The position numbers and the translations under genes were made by a program. The notes beneath the pieces are model-generated. The model was not told the DNA's origin and made no database searches. It was given only the letters and a program-made list of their open reading frames with translations. 4,996 nt of DNA from a plasmid: the NCBI RefSeq assembly GCF_055900595.2, contig NZ_JBVWEU010000010.1, one strand, 5' to 3'. How positions within the stretch are numbered: position 1 is the stretch's first letter; each line of letters begins with the position of its first letter. This document shows, piece by piece, positions 1-4,996 of this stretch.

Positions 1-139
1 ATGCACGAACCCCCGTTCAGTCCGACTGCTGCGCCTGTTCCGGTAACTTTCGACTTGAGTCCAACCCGGAAGGCACGACAAAACGCCACTGGCAGCAGCC
101 ACTGGTAAGGGGTGTACAAGAATTACTGGTGCAGAGTTC

Positions 140-169
140 TTGAAGTTACAGCCTAACTACAGCTAAACT
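140..169 (+). promoter_or_regulatory. RNA I promoter (-35 TTGAAG 140-145, -10 TAAACT 164-169)
   Basis: TTGAAG is identical to the pMB1 RNA I -35 and sits in the conserved agagttcttgaag context; 18-bp spacer to TAAACT. Hexamers read directly from sequence; function inferred. Confidence 0.55.
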
Positions 170-175
170 GAAAGG

Positions 176-280
176 ACAGATTTGGTGGCAGCGGTCTTGT
201 ACACCCTGTTACCACGGTTCAGAAGTTCCCCAACTTACTGATCCTTCGAAAAACCACCTCCCCAGGTGGTTTTTTCGTTT
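176..280 (+). ncRNA. RNA I antisense copy-number control RNA (ColE1-type)
   Basis: Starts at ACAGA (cf. pMB1 ACAGTATTTGG) about 7 nt downstream of a TAAACT -10 box; ends at an intrinsic terminator (stem accacct 253-259 / aggtggt 264-270, then a T-run). Length ~105 nt and position relative to the RNA II promoter match ColE1 RNA I. Stem-loop sequences differ from pMB1. Confidence 0.75.
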
Positions 281-290
281 ACAGAGCAAA

Positions 291-319
291 AGATTACATC
301 CCGCAGGTTAGGATCTCAA
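291..319 (-). promoter_or_regulatory. RNA II primer promoter (-35 TTGAGA = rc of 314-319, -10 TAATCT = rc of 291-296)
   Basis: Reverse complement of ggatctcaagaagatcc..agatta gives TTGAGA - 17 bp - TAATCT, the same hexamers and spacing as the pMB1 RNA II promoter (ggatctcaagaagatcc is conserved). Confidence 0.6.
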
Positions 320-495
320 GAAGATCCTTTTAATCGGAATTCGACAACTCCAGATAAGTCATGGTGAGCCAGCCAACCCCTTCGACTGAATATCGTTCCA
401 AAAAAAGGCAGTCAGCTGAAAGAAACTAACAGTAGAACAATAATCTCTAGTACCCTGAATCTAAGCTAACAACAAAACTAGATTAGGAGTTATAG

Positions 496-1554
496 ATGGC
501 GATCTATGCCGTATGGAATAACAAGGGTGGTGTAGGGAAAAGTTACCTTACTTTTCAGTTAGCCTCTGAATATGCCAGACAGAACCCTACTAAAAAGGTC
601 CTGGTGGTTGACCTGTGCCCACAAGCGAACTCGTCCTCTATGTTACTTGGTGGAATGATAAATGGCGAAAACACACTAAACCAGATTCATTCAGCAATAC
701 AGAGAAAGACAATATCTGGATATATTGAGGATAGGATCAGAAGTCCATATATTCCTACCAACACTGGTTCTAGCTATGTAATAAATGTATCTACACACAA
801 TAGTAAAGTTCCAAATAATCTATATCTTGTCACTGGCGATGAACAATTAGAACTCCAAGCATCAAGAGTTGTTGGGGCATCATTTCCAGGTCCCCATGAT
901 GCATGGCGTACTGTTCACCTCTGGATTAATGATTTAATCAGTGACATTTGCAACTCATGGAATAATGAAGATAGCTGCGTATTCATTGACTGCAACCCTA
1001 GCTTCTCTATTTATACAGAGTTAGCTTTAACCGCAGCAGAGCGCCTTTTAATTCCTTTCTCTGCCGATGGTTCATCAAAGAGAGCAGTTAAGGCTGTACT
1101 TTCTTTAGTTTATGGTGAGCGTCGCCATCAGAATGAACCACAATCAGATTTCTATCTTAATAGCAATCGTTATTCTATGTCGCTACCACAAATATATATG
1201 TATGTTGGAAATAGATTAACGCAAATGAACAATTCATCTGCCAGTGCATTTAAGACGGTAGTAACCGAAATTGGTGATGAAATTTGGAAAGTATGGCAAA
1301 CAAAACCAAGTCTGTTTTGTATTCACCCAAATGGGAGCTCAACGCCAAATAATAAAAGATCTTTCAGGAATATGTTTCAGTATGAAGTAAATGATGCAAA
1401 CACAGCATCTGTCGTATCTGGAGCCTTAGGTATTCCAATCGCGACATTAACTGCAGGAAATAAAACTGTTTCAGGAAAAATAATAAAGGTTAATCAGACG
1501 CAGCTAGATAAACAAGTCCCCAACATTGTAGCTCTCGCTGGTATGATCGAATAA
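496..1554 (+). CDS. ParA/MinD/Soj-superfamily P-loop ATPase, 352 aa, with ~90-aa C-terminal extension of unknown function
   Basis: ATG preceded by AGGAG (484-488, 7-nt spacer). Deviant Walker A KGGVGKS at residues 10-16 (nt 523-543); ParA-type VLVVDLCPQANSS segment; Walker B-like CVFID (nt 976-990) followed by NPSFSIYTELALTAAERLLIPFSAD. Long uninterrupted ORF ending at a strong intrinsic terminator. AT-rich compared with the backbone. No symbol assigned because the specific family is not recognised. Confidence 0.85.
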   Translation: MAIYAVWNNKGGVGKSYLTFQLASEYARQNPTKKVLVVDLCPQANSSSMLLGGMINGENTLNQIHSAIQRKTISGYIEDRIRSPYIPTNTGSSYVINVSTHNSKVPNNLYLVTGDEQLELQASRVVGASFPGPHDAWRTVHLWINDLISDICNSWNNEDSCVFIDCNPSFSIYTELALTAAERLLIPFSADGSSKRAVKAVLSLVYGERRHQNEPQSDFYLNSNRYSMSLPQIYMYVGNRLTQMNNSSASAFKTVVTEIGDEIWKVWQTKPSLFCIHPNGSSTPNNKRSFRNMFQYEVNDANTASVVSGALGIPIATLTAGNKTVSGKIIKVNQTQLDKQVPNIVALAGMIE

Positions 1555-1556
1555 AA

Positions 1557-1590
1557 TAGCAAGGCCCTTAAAAGGGCCTTTTTTTATTTG
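1557..1590. terminator. Bidirectional intrinsic terminator between convergent genes
   Basis: Perfect 7-bp GC-rich stem aaggccc (1561-1567) / gggcctt (1574-1580) with 6-nt loop, followed on the plus strand by a T-run (1581-1585 and beyond) and flanked on the minus strand by a weaker U-rich stretch. Lies 3 nt after the ParA-like stop and just after the stop of the 1584-1841 minus-strand ORF. Confidence 0.7.
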
Positions 1591-1841
1591 TTTTTCTTTA
1601 CTGCTTGCAGCGCCCTGCCAGCACTAGAGGCCAACTCTTTGATTACATTATCTTTACTTTCAACAACCTCAGTAAGCAACTCGTTTTCGTTTTCCAGTTT
1701 ATTCAAAGCGTTCTGAGTATCTTCAATAGCATCATCATACCCTTCGGCATAGCCATCCATCCAACCAAGAGTATACGTTTGGTCCAAAAGATCAGCTTGC
1801 TTATCCTGCAGATCTTTATTCTGATTATTGTTAGAGCCCAT
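1584..1841 (-). CDS. Small acidic hypothetical protein, 85 aa (D/E/N/Q-rich, probably helical)
   Basis: ATG at 1841 preceded on the minus strand by TGAGGAAAAAAC (GAGG about 8 nt upstream); ends at the shared terminator. The plus-strand antisense ORF (1605-1901) starts with TTG, lacks an SD and is hydrophobic, so the minus-strand reading is preferred. No recognisable family. Confidence 0.6.
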   Translation of the reverse strand: MGSNNNQNKDLQDKQADLLDQTYTLGWMDGYAEGYDDAIEDTQNALNKLENENELLTEVVESKDNVIKELASSAGRALQAVKKNK

Positions 1842-2016
1842 GTTTTTTCCTCATTTGTTGGCGCATCTGAGTTTTCAAACCAGGAGGAATTCCATTTCTA
1901 AGTTTCTCACTTAGTCTGACTGGTGGTGTGTTTCCTGAGACTGGATTACAGTCAGCATCCACCCCGACATCTTTCTTTTTATAGTCGCCAATATTCCTAA
2001 CGTTATCTGTAGTCAT
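1831..2016 (-). CDS. Possible small basic protein, 61 aa, overlapping the start of the 85-aa ORF by 11 nt
   Basis: ATG at 2016 downstream of the AT-rich divergent promoter region; its last codons contain the SD of the next ORF (translational-coupling geometry). No convincing SD of its own and no recognisable motif; may be only a 5' leader. Confidence 0.3.
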   Translation of the reverse strand: MTTDNVRNIGDYKKKDVGVDADCNPVSGNTPPVRLSEKLRNGIPPGLKTQMRQQMRKKHGL

Positions 2017-2179
2017 AGAAAACCACGCCCATTGCTGTGAATAACCGAACTATAAACCAGAAAAAAAACGTACGGCTTATCATAACACTTGACACAAAAA
2101 AACACCGCTACTCTCCAAGCAAAAAACATAAAATTGGAAAAACAAAATCACAAGCACATGATAACAATAGATATTAATA

Positions 2180-2207
2180 TTTACTTACATTTAGTGAGTT
2201 TTATAAT
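2180..2207 (+). promoter_or_regulatory. Candidate sigma70 promoter for the 143-aa ORF (-35 TTTACT 2180-2185, -10 TATAAT 2202-2207)
   Basis: Exact TATAAT hexamer with a 16-bp spacer to a TTTACT -35-like hexamer, ~50 nt upstream of the ATG at 2259, inside a 240-bp AT-rich divergent intergenic region. Prediction by eye only. Confidence 0.35.
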
Positions 2208-2258
2208 TAGAAAAACAATGTAATTTAATAATCACAAACATTACCTAAGGACGAACTG

Positions 2259-2690
2259 ATGAAAATACCCGCGCATTTGAAGCATAAACCAATTATTCAA
2301 GTCGAAAATTACGACCGCATTGACGGCCCACATGCCGATGACACTGATGCTATGGGGCTATCTGTAGGTATTGCTCAATGGAACACTCCTGGATGGACTG
2401 AGCTTTCGGCAAAGGTTTGGCGAAACACAGGAGAAAAATGGTCAAGACAATCAGAAGAGCTGCCTCTTCACCGGGTAATCGACCTTGCAACTCTGATCTG
2501 TATCACCATGGACTACAGTAAAAATGGGCGACTTTCATCCAGTGATGATTTTCCCGTGACTCGCTCAACTGATAACCCTGAGCTAGCACATCACACTGAG
2601 TTTATGAAAAAAGAGTTAAAACAAAATAAAAGCAATCTTGATGTAAGCCTCAAACGCCTCTCGACTGAATTGAAGAGACTTGGCTATTAA
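2259..2690 (+). CDS. Hypothetical protein, 143 aa, unknown function
   Basis: ATG preceded by TAAGGA (2246-2251, 7-nt spacer); candidate promoter upstream; ORF ends 38 nt before the first Xer-like site. No recognisable catalytic motif; C-terminus is K/E/L-rich. Confidence 0.65.
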   Translation: MKIPAHLKHKPIIQVENYDRIDGPHADDTDAMGLSVGIAQWNTPGWTELSAKVWRNTGEKWSRQSEELPLHRVIDLATLICITMDYSKNGRLSSSDDFPVTRSTDNPELAHHTEFMKKELKQNKSNLDVSLKRLSTELKRLGY

Positions 2691-2727
2691 AACTAGCTTT
2701 AGAAATGTCTACCTACTTCACAGACGA

Positions 2728-2755
2728 ATTTACCATAACATCCGTTTTTCGAACC
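2728..2755 (-). other. XerC/XerD-type site-specific recombination site (cer/dif-like, 6-bp central region), site 1
   Basis: Minus-strand reading GGTTCGAAAAA-CGGATG-TTATGGTAAAT (11-6-11). The XerD arm is identical to the cer XerD arm TTATGGTAAAT; the XerC arm matches consensus GGTGCGnAnAA at about 7 of 11 positions. Shares an identical 20-bp core (aatttaccataacatccgtt, 2727-2746) with site 2. Confidence 0.6.
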
Positions 2756-2760
2756 ATAAT

Positions 2761-2778
2761 GGCAGGCTATAGCCTGCC
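2761..2778. repeat. Perfect 18-bp palindrome ggcaggctatagcctgcc
   Basis: The sequence equals its own reverse complement; lies between Xer-like site 1 and the stop codon (2784) of the 134-aa minus-strand ORF. No strong T-run, so a terminator role is uncertain; could be a protein-binding site. Confidence 0.5.
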
Positions 2779-2783
2779 GTAAT

Positions 2784-3188
2784 TCACCGGAAAAAATCAT
2801 CCACAGAGTCGCTCCACTCATGCCCGGAAAGAGACCACACCTTGTTTATAGGGGGAGGATAACCACTCCTGCAGTACCCGTTTTTTCCCACGAAATCGAA
2901 TGCCCCGTGCGGGTATCCATTGATCAGGAGTACGCACTTCTGACTGTCTTCTGACCAGCCAATTTTAACATCAGAAGGAATGTGACCGTCTGAAACGTCT
3001 TCGGCATTGTAGATGTGTACTGCGTCCATAATCGGGTTTCCCTCGACGGACTCATCGAGCGCATAGAAATACCCGGTCCGGCCATCGTCTTCGAACACGG
3101 CGGCCAGCATGCCCTCAGGAGCGAGGCTCTTTATAACCTGTTCCTCCCCGACAACGAGCTGGGCCTGTATCGTCACTAAAATGGTCAT
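2784..3188 (-). CDS. Hypothetical protein, 134 aa, GC-rich, cargo of the Xer-bounded cassette
   Basis: ATG at 3188 with AAGGAG about 10 nt upstream on the minus strand; the ORF fills almost all of the interval between the two Xer-like sites. No motif recognised. The overlapping 70-aa minus-strand ORF (3115-3327) is judged spurious. Confidence 0.6.
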   Translation of the reverse strand: MTILVTIQAQLVVGEEQVIKSLAPEGMLAAVFEDDGRTGYFYALDESVEGNPIMDAVHIYNAEDVSDGHIPSDVKIGWSEDSQKCVLLINGYPHGAFDFVGKNGYCRSGYPPPINKVWSLSGHEWSDSVDDFFR

Positions 3189-3245
3189 CAGGTCTGTTCT
3201 CCTTTCCTTGGTTGCTTCGGCAGCCAGCTTTCAGACAAGCGGATA

Positions 3246-3273
3246 ATTTACCATAACATCCGTTATCAGCATC
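3246..3273 (-). other. XerC/XerD-type site-specific recombination site (cer/dif-like), site 2; candidate plasmid multimer-resolution site
   Basis: Minus-strand reading GATGCTGATAA-CGGATG-TTATGGTAAAT; central region and XerD arm identical to site 1, XerC arm about 8 of 11 to consensus. About 300 bp of GC-rich sequence with no credible ORF lies on its XerC side (3274-3580), where cer-type accessory sequences would be expected. Confidence 0.6.
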
Positions 3274-3594
3274 GTCAGAAACGCGCTGAGGGCGTTTCTG
3301 ACGGGAAACCGGTAAAACAGGCAACAAACCACCCGAAAACCCGCCAGAAACGCGCAGGCTCTGTTTTTATGGCATGCATGAGTATGCACGCAAGTGCATA
3401 GCGCGAATATTCACGCCATTCAGACAGGGTAAGTCCTGTTTCCGGCGTTCTTCCCATCCGAAAACGGTGAACGGGGACGCAATTTATTGCGTGGCCGTGA
3501 AGCGTTGCCGGCGCAGCCGGAAAACCGGTTTTCAGCACGTTCAGGAATCGGGTTCGTCGACGGCCGGCAATCACGTTATGGCAAGTCGCCGGAC

Positions 3595-3784
3595 GACTCA
3601 CCACACGATTCACCGGCGACTCTGCACTAGAGTCGTACCTAGAGTCGCCGCGACTAAAAAACAACCAAACGGGGAGTCGGGTCTAGAGTCGGGTCGTTAT
3701 TAACTCATTGTTTTTATAGCCCTGAGTCGTTACCGACTCTATGACGACTCGCCGGGGACTCTATGACGAGTCGTCATAGAGTCG
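3595..3784. repeat. Array of 12 GAGTC/GACTC motifs (11 as the hexamer GAGTCG/CGACTC), including two pairs of tandem 12-bp repeats and nested inverted repeats
   Basis: Counted directly: GAGTC at 3630, 3642, 3674, 3686, 3724, 3768, 3779; GACTC at 3595, 3618, 3735, 3746, 3757. Tandem ctagagtcg at 3627 and 3639; tandem gagtcgggtc at 3674 and 3686; 13-bp gactctatgacga at 3735 and 3757 (direct) and 3771 (inverted). Chance expectation for a 5-mer on both strands in ~190 bp is under 1. Confidence 0.7.
3757..3783. repeat. 27-bp perfect palindrome gactctatgacgagtcgtcatagagtc (13-bp arms around a central G)
   Basis: Every position i pairs with position 28-i; sits at the end of the GAGTCG array, immediately before an AT-rich stretch (3786-3860). 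Confidence 0.75.
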
Positions 3785-3982
3785 GATCTATATAAATAAA
3801 ATTTAAAAAACGAAATCTCAGGAAAGTAAACTACTGATATTAAATACAAATCTGCAAAATTTTAATTTTGCGTGGGGTGTGGGTATTTTTAGTGGTGAGG
3901 AGCGTTCAGAGATCTGACTATTTTTGGGAAGGTTCAGGAACTCCCCGGGATGGCCGGAGAGGAAAACTGAAGCATGACAGGG

Positions 3983-4384
3983 TCAGGATTTTTTCCAGAA
4001 TTTCCACCATGGCGCCGGGGATTCAGTTAATTTTGCCTGGTGATTTTCAAGAAGGAGCATGGCCTGTTTCAGGCTGTCAATGTGCGAATCTTTGGACAAA
4101 AGTAAAGTGTTCAGGTGTTCAATCTCCTGTTTCAGATGACGAATCACCTGTTCACACTGGTCAACAGAGGCTGTATCGCGCTGTTCAGAGACCTGTCCAG
4201 AATGGTGTTCACCCTTCAGTTGTTCAAAGGGACCAAAGACACGTAAAAGCTCTGAAGTATCTACCATTTTTGCATTGCGCTCACCGCTACAGGTGGACAG
4301 GTCACCTGCTTTAATTAACCTGTGCAGTGTTGTTCTACTCTTACCCGTCAGTCGGGCTGCCTCACTAATAGACACTCTGGCCAT
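3983..4384 (-). CDS. HTH DNA-binding protein (excisionase/MerR-like HTH_17-type N-terminus) with C-terminal coiled-coil-like region, 133 aa
   Basis: N-terminus SISEAARLTGKSRTTLHRLIKAGDLS fits the excisionase-family HTH pattern (EAAxLxGxSxxTxxRLIxxGxL); the C-terminal half is heptad-like and Q/E/L-rich. Start ATG overlaps the rop stop (TGATG at 4382-4386), implying co-transcription and translational coupling. Its antisense 148-aa ORF is Arg-rich and judged spurious. Confidence 0.7.
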   Translation of the reverse strand: MARVSISEAARLTGKSRTTLHRLIKAGDLSTCSGERNAKMVDTSELLRVFGPFEQLKGEHHSGQVSEQRDTASVDQCEQVIRHLKQEIEHLNTLLLSKDSHIDSLKQAMLLLENHQAKLTESPAPWWKFWKKS

Positions 4385-4575
4385 CAGTTACCATCCTGTA
4401 ATGCATCCAGTCTCGAGGACAGTGTACGGAAAAGATGCTCCGCATCATCGTGGAGTTTCTCACAAAGGTCGGCCTCGACATCAAGATCAAGCTCGTTAAG
4501 CTTCTCCAGCAGGAGCAGAGATTGATGCTGGATGAATTTAGCCATGTTCAGCGCTGTTTTCTGTTGTTTCGTCAT
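4384..4575 (-). CDS. rop: Rop/Rom RNA I-RNA II interaction modulator, 63 aa
   Basis: Translation MTKQQKTALNMAKFIQHQSLLLLEKLNELDLDVEADLCEKLHDDAEHLFRTL... closely matches ColE1/pMB1 Rop (MTKQEKTALNMARFIRSQTLTLLEKLNELDADEQADICESLHD..., recalled from memory), with identical length of 63 aa; located just downstream of the origin in replication direction. Confidence 0.9.
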   Translation of the reverse strand: MTKQQKTALNMAKFIQHQSLLLLEKLNELDLDVEADLCEKLHDDAEHLFRTLSSRLDALQDGN

Positions 4576-4599
4576 AAGAGGCCTCAGAGCGTCAGTGCT

Positions 4600-4996
4600 C
4601 AGTGTAGGGATGTTCTCTCTTCCGCTTCCTCGCTCACTGACTCGCTACGCTCGGTCGTTCGGCTGCGGCGAGCGGCAGGAGCATACGTTATGAAAGCTCG
4701 AGAAAACCGAGCGATCATGTAATTAAGCAAAGGGCAACGAAAGGCCGCGCCGCTGGCGTTTTTCCATAGGCTCCGCCCCCCTGACGAGCATCACAAAAAT
4801 TGACGCTCAAGTCAGAGGTGGCGAAACCCGACAGGACTATAAAGATACCAGGCGTTTCCCCCTGGAAGCTCCCTCGTGCGCTCTCCTGTTCCGACCCTGC
4901 CGTTTACCGGTGTCATTCCGCTGTTATGGCCGCGTTTGTCTCATTCCACGCCTGACACTCAGTTCCGGGTAGGCAGTTCGCTCCAAGCTGGACTGT
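4600..4996. other. ColE1-type origin of replication region (RNA II 3' domain, primer RNA-DNA transition, conserved origin-proximal hairpin region); continues at 1-330
   Basis: Near-identity by eye to pMB1 over cttccgcttcctcgctcactgactcgct.cgctcggtcgttcggctgcggcgagcgg and ggccgcg..gctggcgtttttccataggctccgcccccctgacgagcatcacaaaaat.gacgctcaagtcagaggtggcgaaacccgacaggactataaagataccaggcgtttccccctggaagctccctcgtgcgctctcctgttccgaccctgcc. The RNA-DNA switch is expected near 4735-4745 (inference, not mapped). Confidence 0.85.
4738..4996 (-). ncRNA. RNA II replication primer precursor, 3' portion up to the origin
   Basis: Continuation of the minus-strand RNA II from position 1 across the circular junction; the 3' boundary is approximate and placed by analogy with pMB1, where the primer ends near the ggccgcg..gctggcgttttt motif. 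Confidence 0.65.

Follow-up and report, generated by a model that had tools for sequence, protein, structure and literature searches.

What does a lone ParA-fold ATPase do on a small ColE1-type plasmid? The question is raised by a stretch of plasmid DNA of 4,996 nucleotides (NCBI RefSeq assembly GCF_055900595.2, contig NZ_JBVWEU010000010.1), the whole of which is hereafter referred to as the window. On its plus strand, at positions 496..1554, the window carries as cargo the gene for a 352 aa stand-alone ParA-fold ATPase, and the identical RefSeq protein, WP_042109829.1, is labelled 'ParA family protein'. Judged from its sequence, this is not the gene of an ordinary plasmid-partition ParA, and we consider the chances about even that it encodes a stand-alone defence or exclusion cargo of the type represented by GiPD474, a single-gene ParA-fold phage defence. 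This reading is based on the full-length homology of the window protein to a proxy for GiPD474 and on the presence of the family in defence-like genomic positions.

The protein displays the features that define the ParA/MinD (SIMIBI) superfamily, namely a deviant Walker A motif, a switch I aspartate, a Walker B aspartate and the three-dimensional fold, and it matches the Pfam family AAA_31 (1.2e-17, residues 3-205), together with CbiA, and PHROG 164, 'ParA-like partition protein' (7e-35). As the original prediction had stated, the Walker A box lies at the extreme N-terminus of the 352 aa product. The translation reads K10-G-G-V-G-K15-S16 (residues 10-16; 523..543, plus strand), where K10 is the signature lysine of ParA/MinD proteins and K15 that of the P-loop, both invariant in 84 family members. 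Further motifs follow on the same strand. The Walker B region, D165-C-N167-P168-S-F (988..1005), aligns to IIDCPPS of Soj, with D165, N167 and P168 invariant in the same 84 sequences; the motif N239-R240-L-T242 (1210..1221), located after strand beta6, has an invariant N239, with R240 and T242 conserved in 78 and 76 of the 84 members, respectively; and a C-terminal motif, D300...G312-x-P314 (1393..1437), combines invariant D300 and G312 with a proline found in 82 of the 84. Going by position, and not by a tool alignment, R240 would be the counterpart of Arg189 of Bacillus subtilis Soj, a residue involved in non-specific DNA binding. The residues invariant across all clades are N8, N9, K10, K15, D39, C41, P42, Q43, N108, D165, N167, P168, T174, P187, D191, S194, P231, N239, D300 and G312, and the set of catalytic and dimerisation residues is intact (signature K10, P-loop K15, switch D39 and Walker B D165).

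An AlphaFold2 model built on a 34-sequence alignment presents a single compact domain (pLDDT 91.5, pTM 0.92), in which residues 241-250 form the sole weak 10-residue block (mean pLDDT 58). The original prediction had envisaged a short type Ib ParA followed by a C-terminal extension of ~90 aa rich in N, S and T, and this description had to be abandoned. The N+S+T content of residues 260-352 is 24.7%, versus 25.9% for residues 1-259, the segment is well folded and includes two invariant residues, D300 and G312, and composition and model together rule out a low-complexity or disordered C-terminal tail. In an hhalign comparison with Soj, residues 1-206 pair with Soj 1-166 and the last 146 residues take the place of the last 87 of Soj, with the extra length spread along the chain. 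Type Ib ParA proteins (TP228/ParF, pSM19035 delta, Soj-like) resemble the window protein in their N-terminal Walker A with signature lysine, their DPQ-type switch I and their Walker B, but they comprise ~200-260 aa versus 352 aa, and the window gene lacks a ParB/ParG gene and adjacent centromere repeats and belongs to a family that is also found in integrated elements. DIP2308 of Corynebacterium diphtheriae (PDB 3pg5), an uncharacterised ParA-like protein of 361 aa, aligns by sequence over the N-terminal 200 residues only and adds no functional information on the ATPase, and a BFVD viral fold search with the ATPase returned nothing informative.

GiPD474 (STM474_RS13505, WP_000368620.1) is the 361 aa product of a single gene located in the Gifsy-1 immunity region, beside cII/cro/cI, of Salmonella Typhimurium 4/74 (PMC12724215), and adopts the ParA/AAA_31 fold, residues 29-34 reading GGVGKT (Bosma, Noireaux & Bowden, AEM, November 2025, PMC12724215). 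Its deletion restores the plating of Felix O1, and GiPD474 alone on a low-copy vector, in Salmonella LT2 or E. coli K-12, reduces the plating of T4, Alf5 and Felix O1 by ~5 logs, with T7, SP6, S16 and others unaffected (PMC12724215). As a proxy for GiPD474 in the alignment we used an E. coli O157 prophage protein of 361 aa that likewise has GGVGKT at residues 29-34, is encoded downstream of a cI-like repressor and shares a 90%-identity cluster with S. Typhimurium sequences. To this proxy the window protein shows 35% identity over 342 residues (4-338 versus 22-348; E 4e-66). It has in common with GiPD474 a length of ~350-360 aa, a one-domain architecture of the ParA/AAA_31 fold in which the deviant Walker A is N-terminal, the lack of an effector domain, the occurrence as a lone gene on a mobile element, and all of the family-invariant residues. 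It differs from GiPD474 in lacking the ~18-residue N-terminal leader and in being encoded on a ColE1-type plasmid, not in a prophage immunity region beside cI, and its 35% identity lies below the definition of GiPD474 homologues as proteins with at least 70% identity and 70% coverage (PMC12724215). With this match and the defence-like genomic habits of the family described below, the defence or exclusion role that had initially been offered as pure speculation now appears supported, and for the window's clade we infer a defence function from homology and genomic context.

The notion that the gene is instead an ordinary partition ParA, with its partner elsewhere on the plasmid, was examined on the complete replicon and rejected. 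Comparison with the 4991-bp Klebsiella quasipneumoniae plasmid p3B2663 reveals that the window contains a whole ~4.99-kb plasmid in circularly permuted form, window 1-4546 being equivalent to 445-4991 of p3B2663 at 99.98% identity. At least 80% of the window is covered by each of thirty-six PLSDB records, most of them from Klebsiella, with E. coli and Enterobacter also represented. The replicon is of the ColE1 type, as had been proposed, with both RNAI (177-278; RF00106, 101.8 bits) and rop (4384..4575, annotated in identical plasmids) present, and is typed in PLSDB as ColRNAI_rep_cluster_1987, non-mobilizable. No ParB/ParG/ParR-like gene follows the ATPase gene, the downstream gene being convergent (1584..1841) and separated from it by a terminator (1561-1580), in agreement with the original prediction. 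Moreover, no open reading frame of the complete plasmid matches ParB/ParG/ParR-type families in NCBIfam, PADLOC or PHROGs, and because the window represents a complete plasmid this absence holds for the entire replicon. No array of centromere repeats is present within or flanking 300-1600, the only array on the plasmid being that of the backbone at 3590-3800. The protein itself scores 52.2 bits against the NCBIfam equivalog for partition ParA (NF041546, ParA_partition), versus a cutoff of 180 bits, and the RepA and PrgP models likewise remain far under their cutoffs.

Sequence searches place the ATPase within a much larger group of proteins. A word-indexed protein search returned more than 3800 hits, the top 120 of which are almost all exactly 352 aa long and 74-100% identical to the window protein, with sources including Vibrio, Methylomonas, Dickeya, Thiomargarita and Electrothrix. 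When 50%-identity representatives were searched exhaustively, 1883 proteins reached E <= 1e-3 and 102 reached E <= 1e-30. Many are 330-370 aa long and align over residues ~3-340 at 30-45% identity; because relatives this distant align to about residue 340, the ~350 aa architecture is a trait of the family. A scan of one genome per species confirmed at least 466 relatives among the 600 pattern matches listed. The initial designation of the protein as an orphan therefore requires qualification, in that no partner is encoded on the complete plasmid, but by sequence similarity the ATPase is a member of a large, strongly conserved family of ~350 aa proteins, and not a one-off.

The window's own clade comprises proteins of about 350 aa that are 58-80% identical and come from at least eight phyla, spanning Bacteroidota, Desulfobacterota, Cyanobacteria, Acidobacteria, Chlorobi, Magnetococcales and Alpha-, Beta- and Gammaproteobacteria. 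Within this clade, nonsynonymous divergence (dN) is 0.14-0.27 and synonymous divergence (dS) is saturated. Recent horizontal spread as the reason for the cross-phylum identity was rejected on account of the saturated synonymous sites, and the identity reflects a divergence that is old and constrained by strong purifying selection rather than a sweep of recent date. In both close and distant clades, and across hosts, the gene lies on average ~9 GC points under its flanks. A total of 160 plasmid records contain any homologue of the ATPase, about 65 of them at 90% identity or more, and 120 of the 160 are non-mobilizable. A literature search found nothing on the window's clade, including under its protein accession or in integron-cassette screens.

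To characterize the genomic settings of the family, open reading frames were called in about 95 loci, and every neighbour up to 5 kb away was clustered. The survey found no conserved neighbour gene across the ~45 loci of the window's clade, and a recurrent location of the gene in cargo positions of mobile elements. Members of the clade occur as a lone gene on plasmids of 2.9-8 kb with unrelated replicons, including ColRNAI plasmids, a Proteus Col3M plasmid (4044 bp), Acinetobacter repM plasmids and an Erwinia plasmid of 2872 bp, over a third of which is filled by the ATPase gene. On chromosome 2 of V. cholerae the gene is a single-gene cassette of the integron, with VCR/attC repeats on either side, one of them 13 nt past the stop codon. 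In Dickeya and Methylomonas the gene adjoins P4-type integrases at island edges, in V. fluvialis it is found at the end of a phage-like block, and in a Falsiroseomonas prophage a member of the window's own clade is encoded within 600 bp of an S24/helix-turn-helix (HTH) repressor. Two larger plasmids carry the gene next to a partition-type ATPase gene. On a 12.4-kb Acidovorax plasmid it adjoins an annotated parA-parG operon, and on a 39.6-kb Aeromonas plasmid a short ParA gene accompanied by a small unnamed gene; on both, the family ATPase is clearly not the partition ATPase.

Small genes resembling antitoxins of the VbhA family were observed near the ATPase gene on the Acidovorax (L108:4885-5076) and Erwinia (L011:2063-2263) plasmids. 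No Fic toxin gene is annotated near either of them, the two are dissimilar by BLAST, and no further locus has one.

The gene's position on the window plasmid resembles that of exchangeable cargo. Its GC content is 39%, versus 48% for the remaining plasmid, and sibling plasmids with the same ori-rop-HTH backbone hold other genes in its slot. This pattern fits a variable accessory slot and supports the view, already expressed in the original prediction, that the AT-rich gene is of foreign origin, and more specifically that it is swappable cargo. The siblings without the ATPase gene carry the backbone stretch 3279-4996, including the HTH gene and the repeat array described below. In one of them, the ColRNAI_1987 sibling NZ_CP137354.1, the cargo slot is occupied by a gene for a DUF3226 protein (L109:850-1482), which matches the PADLOC candidate defence family PDC-M38B (3.9e-11) and, weakly, mad4 of MADS.

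Sister clades of the family occupy positions of their own. In clades 33-39% identical to the window protein the gene lies immediately downstream of a phage repressor gene and is co-oriented with it, as seen in Pseudomonas phage phi297, Klebsiella phage ST11-VIM1phi8.2, a cII-cro-cI fragment of Salmonella Infantis and E. coli prophages (71 of 5426 complete genomes), and in a P1-like IncY phage-plasmid it comes after antirepressor and HTH genes. In lambda, the position downstream of cI is occupied by rexAB. The likeness to RexAB and other exclusion genes that lambdoid lysogens express from downstream of cI concerns position only, directly after the repressor gene and co-oriented with it in the sister-clade members; there is no sequence or fold relationship to the family, and the window copy is on a plasmid.

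A different sister clade, monophyletic in a rough neighbour-joining tree and 34-38% identical to the window protein, encompasses 12 loci (L043, L046, L047, L049-L053, L055, L056, L058 and L061) from Poribacteria, cyanobacteria, Entotheonella, Rhizobiales and others, in which a gene for a protein of ~200 aa starts 19-50 nt downstream of the ATPase gene. This partner is a RiboL-PSP-HEPN protein (PF18735, 3.4e-10) with an R-x4-H motif, RVRHSFAHG. No PADLOC model is significant for either gene of the pair. Dyads of ParA/Soj and HEPN proteins have been predicted to be toxin-antitoxin conflict modules in which the ATPase was proposed as the antitoxin (Anantharaman et al. 2013, PMC3710099), and the sister clade would likewise be a conflict system, differing in that the published dyad uses the MAE_18760 HEPN family (PMC3710099) and the partner seen here is RiboL-PSP-HEPN. 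By tblastn, matches to the HEPN partner are confined to the 12 sister-clade loci, with none in the window's clade, and no such open reading frame exists in the window.

If the window ATPase is indeed a defence or exclusion protein, it would be a self-sufficient ParA-fold NTPase that protects the host, and hence the plasmid, against phages or other invading DNA. An ATP-sandwich dimer would act as the switch, as in other ParA/MinD ATPases, and the dimer state could bind DNA, via R240, or a conserved cellular or phage component, thereby blocking a step of infection after adsorption. Specificity may be provided by the insertions typical of the family (~56-105 and 241-295) and by the C-terminal hairpin and helix (321-349). 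The 352 aa protein has no enzymatic effector domain, and interference would therefore be expected to proceed by binding or occlusion, not by cleavage; the HEPN-paired sister clade would differ in this respect, with the RNase as the effector. More tentatively, and with low confidence, the protein may be a self-contained antiviral or anti-foreign-DNA module that operates across phyla, the ATP-dimer of which reads or occupies a universal substrate, such as the nucleoid or incoming DNA, and not a fast-evolving phage protein. A universal substrate would explain why, with synonymous sites saturated, identity stays at 73-80% between Bacteroidota, Cyanobacteria and Enterobacteria, and would make the partition-ATPase switch the basis of a mechanistically new class of immunity.

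Several observations weigh against a defence or exclusion role. An identity of 35% does not guarantee equal activity, the comparison with GiPD474 was made with a proxy and not with WP_000368620.1 itself, and the neighbour-joining tree assigns the window protein to a clade other than that of GiPD474. PADLOC 2.0 models gave noise-level hits only for the ATPase. Its conservation, with 73-80% amino-acid identity across phyla and dS saturated, is unusual for a defence gene. Solitary copies are found between housekeeping genes in Electrothrix, a cyanobacterium, Zoogloea and Thiotrichaceae, where no mobile-element or defence neighbour was observed, and two copies lie in plasmid maintenance regions beside parA-parG and toxin-antitoxin genes, a setting with which a role in stability is also compatible. 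Finally, every mechanistic step set out above for the window ATPase is one that we infer.

The same distribution as mobile-element cargo would also suit a weapon of one element against another, acting to hinder competing plasmids or phage-plasmids in their partition, replication or establishment, for instance by ParABS poisoning or DNA coating. Excess or orphan ParA destabilises plasmids, members of the family occur in a phage-plasmid and in prophage immunity regions, and their very strong conservation is in keeping with a target that is itself conserved, DNA or the nucleoid for example. However, the tested relative GiPD474 is active against T4 and Felix O1-type phages, lytic viruses that lack ParABS, and we regard a weapon of this kind as unlikely. 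A role in plasmid maintenance without a dedicated partner, in which a nucleoid-bound ATPase would spread or retain the plasmid either without ParB or via the 133 aa HTH protein and the GAGTC array of the backbone, draws on the ParA fold and the conserved arginine at the putative Soj R189 position, on the enrichment of the family on very small non-mobilizable plasmids of several replicon types, on the iterated GAGTC/palindrome array at 3590-3800, and on the three plasmids that carry the gene beside partition and toxin-antitoxin genes. On two plasmids, however, a separate short ParA operon is present alongside, with an annotated ParG in one, and homologues occur where partition would be meaningless, in prophages, an integron cassette, integrase-bounded islands and housekeeping contexts. 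High-copy ColE1 plasmids are not known to depend on partition, and P1-like phage-plasmids have their own parAB. The HTH protein and the array were also considered as a hidden ParB/parS pair and rejected, the HTH gene being a backbone gene found in 1448 plasmid records, versus 160 with any homologue of the ATPase, and siblings without the ATPase carrying the same backbone (3279-4996). Taken with the score of 52 bits against the 180-bit cutoff of the partition equivalog, these findings leave partner-less maintenance decidedly doubtful.

The tight ATPase-HEPN dyad of the sister clade, together with the proposal of the ATPase as an antitoxin (PMC3710099) and the VbhA-family antitoxin-like genes near the ATPase on two plasmids, invites the alternative that the solo ATPase is a remnant or regulator of a toxin-antitoxin or abortive-infection module, be it an orphan antitoxin against a HEPN RNase or an addiction factor. 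Yet no HEPN or other toxin gene is adjacent in the ~45 loci of the window's clade, GiPD474 is active on its own in a heterologous host, and strong purifying selection extends over the full length of the protein, unlike what is expected of a decaying remnant, all of which makes this origin quite improbable. The copies between housekeeping genes would be explained if the protein were a host positioning or regulatory ParA/MinD ATPase, of the McdA, MipZ or FlhG type, hitch-hiking on the plasmid; against this, no conserved adaptor gene is present, the distribution is patchy and horizontal, the gene averages ~9 GC points under its flanks and is mostly found on mobile elements, and we attach very little probability to it.

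For the defence or exclusion reading, single-gene ParA-fold phage defence is already known from one enterobacterial prophage clade (November 2025); what would be new here is a different and much more widespread clade in a different vehicle. The labels 'ParA family protein' and 'chromosome partitioning protein', found in thousands of records, are very probably wrong for this ATPase family. Should the plasmid copy prove to serve defence or exclusion, phage resistance would be carried by small cryptic ColE1-type plasmids of clinical Klebsiella, E. coli and Enterobacter, a circumstance that would bear on phage therapy and help to explain the persistence of such plasmids. The 352 aa clade, compact, highly conserved and supplied with a natural high-copy vector, would be a convenient model for defence by a ParA switch only, and the HEPN-paired sister clade would offer a natural contrast between a sensor-plus-effector and a sensor-only version.

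The ATPase gene forms a transcription unit of its own. Reading of the sequence identified a Shine-Dalgarno element, AGGAG, at 485..489 on the plus strand, 6 nt ahead of the ATG, and a weak sigma-70-like promoter candidate, CTGAAA-17-AATAAT, at 416..444 on the same strand; the latter agrees with the consensus at 9 of 12 positions, and the region has no more sites of this kind than chance would give. A bidirectional intrinsic terminator hairpin at 1561..1580, acting on both strands, has an 8-bp stem with 5 GC pairs and T-runs on both strands, and the unit is monocistronic because this terminator separates it from the convergent gene for an 85 aa protein. That gene is part of a two-gene overlapping operon on the minus strand (1584..2016), which encodes a basic protein of 61 aa (1831..2016) and an acidic coiled-coil protein of 85 aa (1584..1841). 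The overlapping arrangement of a basic and an acidic product resembles a toxin-antitoxin pair, and across related plasmids the 85 aa protein is 78-83% identical, versus 95-96% for the ATPase.

The 85 aa protein is found in 64 plasmid records, all of them small enterobacterial plasmids, and co-occurs there with the ATPase gene. The shared block is continuous from the origin (window 1-2054), and the linkage is attributed to common descent because of this contiguity. The two genes are absent from the Proteus, Erwinia and Acinetobacter plasmids and from every other family locus examined; they were considered as partners of the ATPase but are probably not functional ones. The DUF6530 and DUF2251 genes of the window were likewise discarded as partners, being absent from all other loci, and among the loci examined no other gene of the window plasmid accompanies the ATPase outside the enterobacterial ColE1 lineage.

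The remainder of the plasmid shows additional features. The origin-proximal segment of the window, 4547-4996, corresponds to the first 444 bases of p3B2663 at 92% identity, with 28 mismatches and 5 gaps, and the split between 92% here and 99.98% over the rest suggests that the origin region may be recombinant or mosaic. The gene for the 133 aa HTH protein (3983..4384, minus strand) starts at the last base of the rop stop codon. Its product scores 63 bits, under the 85-bit cutoff, against NF038291, an Acinetobacter 'plasmid replication DNA-binding protein', and resembles the HTH protein mad1 of MADS (2.9e-6). Downstream of the rop-HTH operon, window 3590-3800 contains a dense array of GAGTCG / CTAGAGTCG / GACTCTATGACGACTCG motifs that includes a perfect 19-nt palindrome (3733-3751 / 3767-3785), and that may serve in multimer resolution or provide binding sites for the HTH protein.

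Two PLSDB records stand out by their annotation. NZ_CP059753.1 and NZ_CP079813.1 comprise the same 4991-bp plasmid, deposited under Enterococcus faecium, which is probably a case of contamination or mis-assignment, and a 3264-bp 'complete plasmid' with cargo genes only and no typed replicon, which is probably an assembly artefact. Lastly, the DUF2251 gene (2784..3188, minus strand) is flanked by a perfect 20-nt direct repeat (AATTTACCATAACATCCGTT) at 2727-2746 and 3245-3264, spaced by 518 bp. Plasmid variants of 4473 bp, that is, 4991 minus 518, have no DUF2251 annotation, and the DUF2251 module therefore seems to have been gained or lost between the 20-nt repeats.

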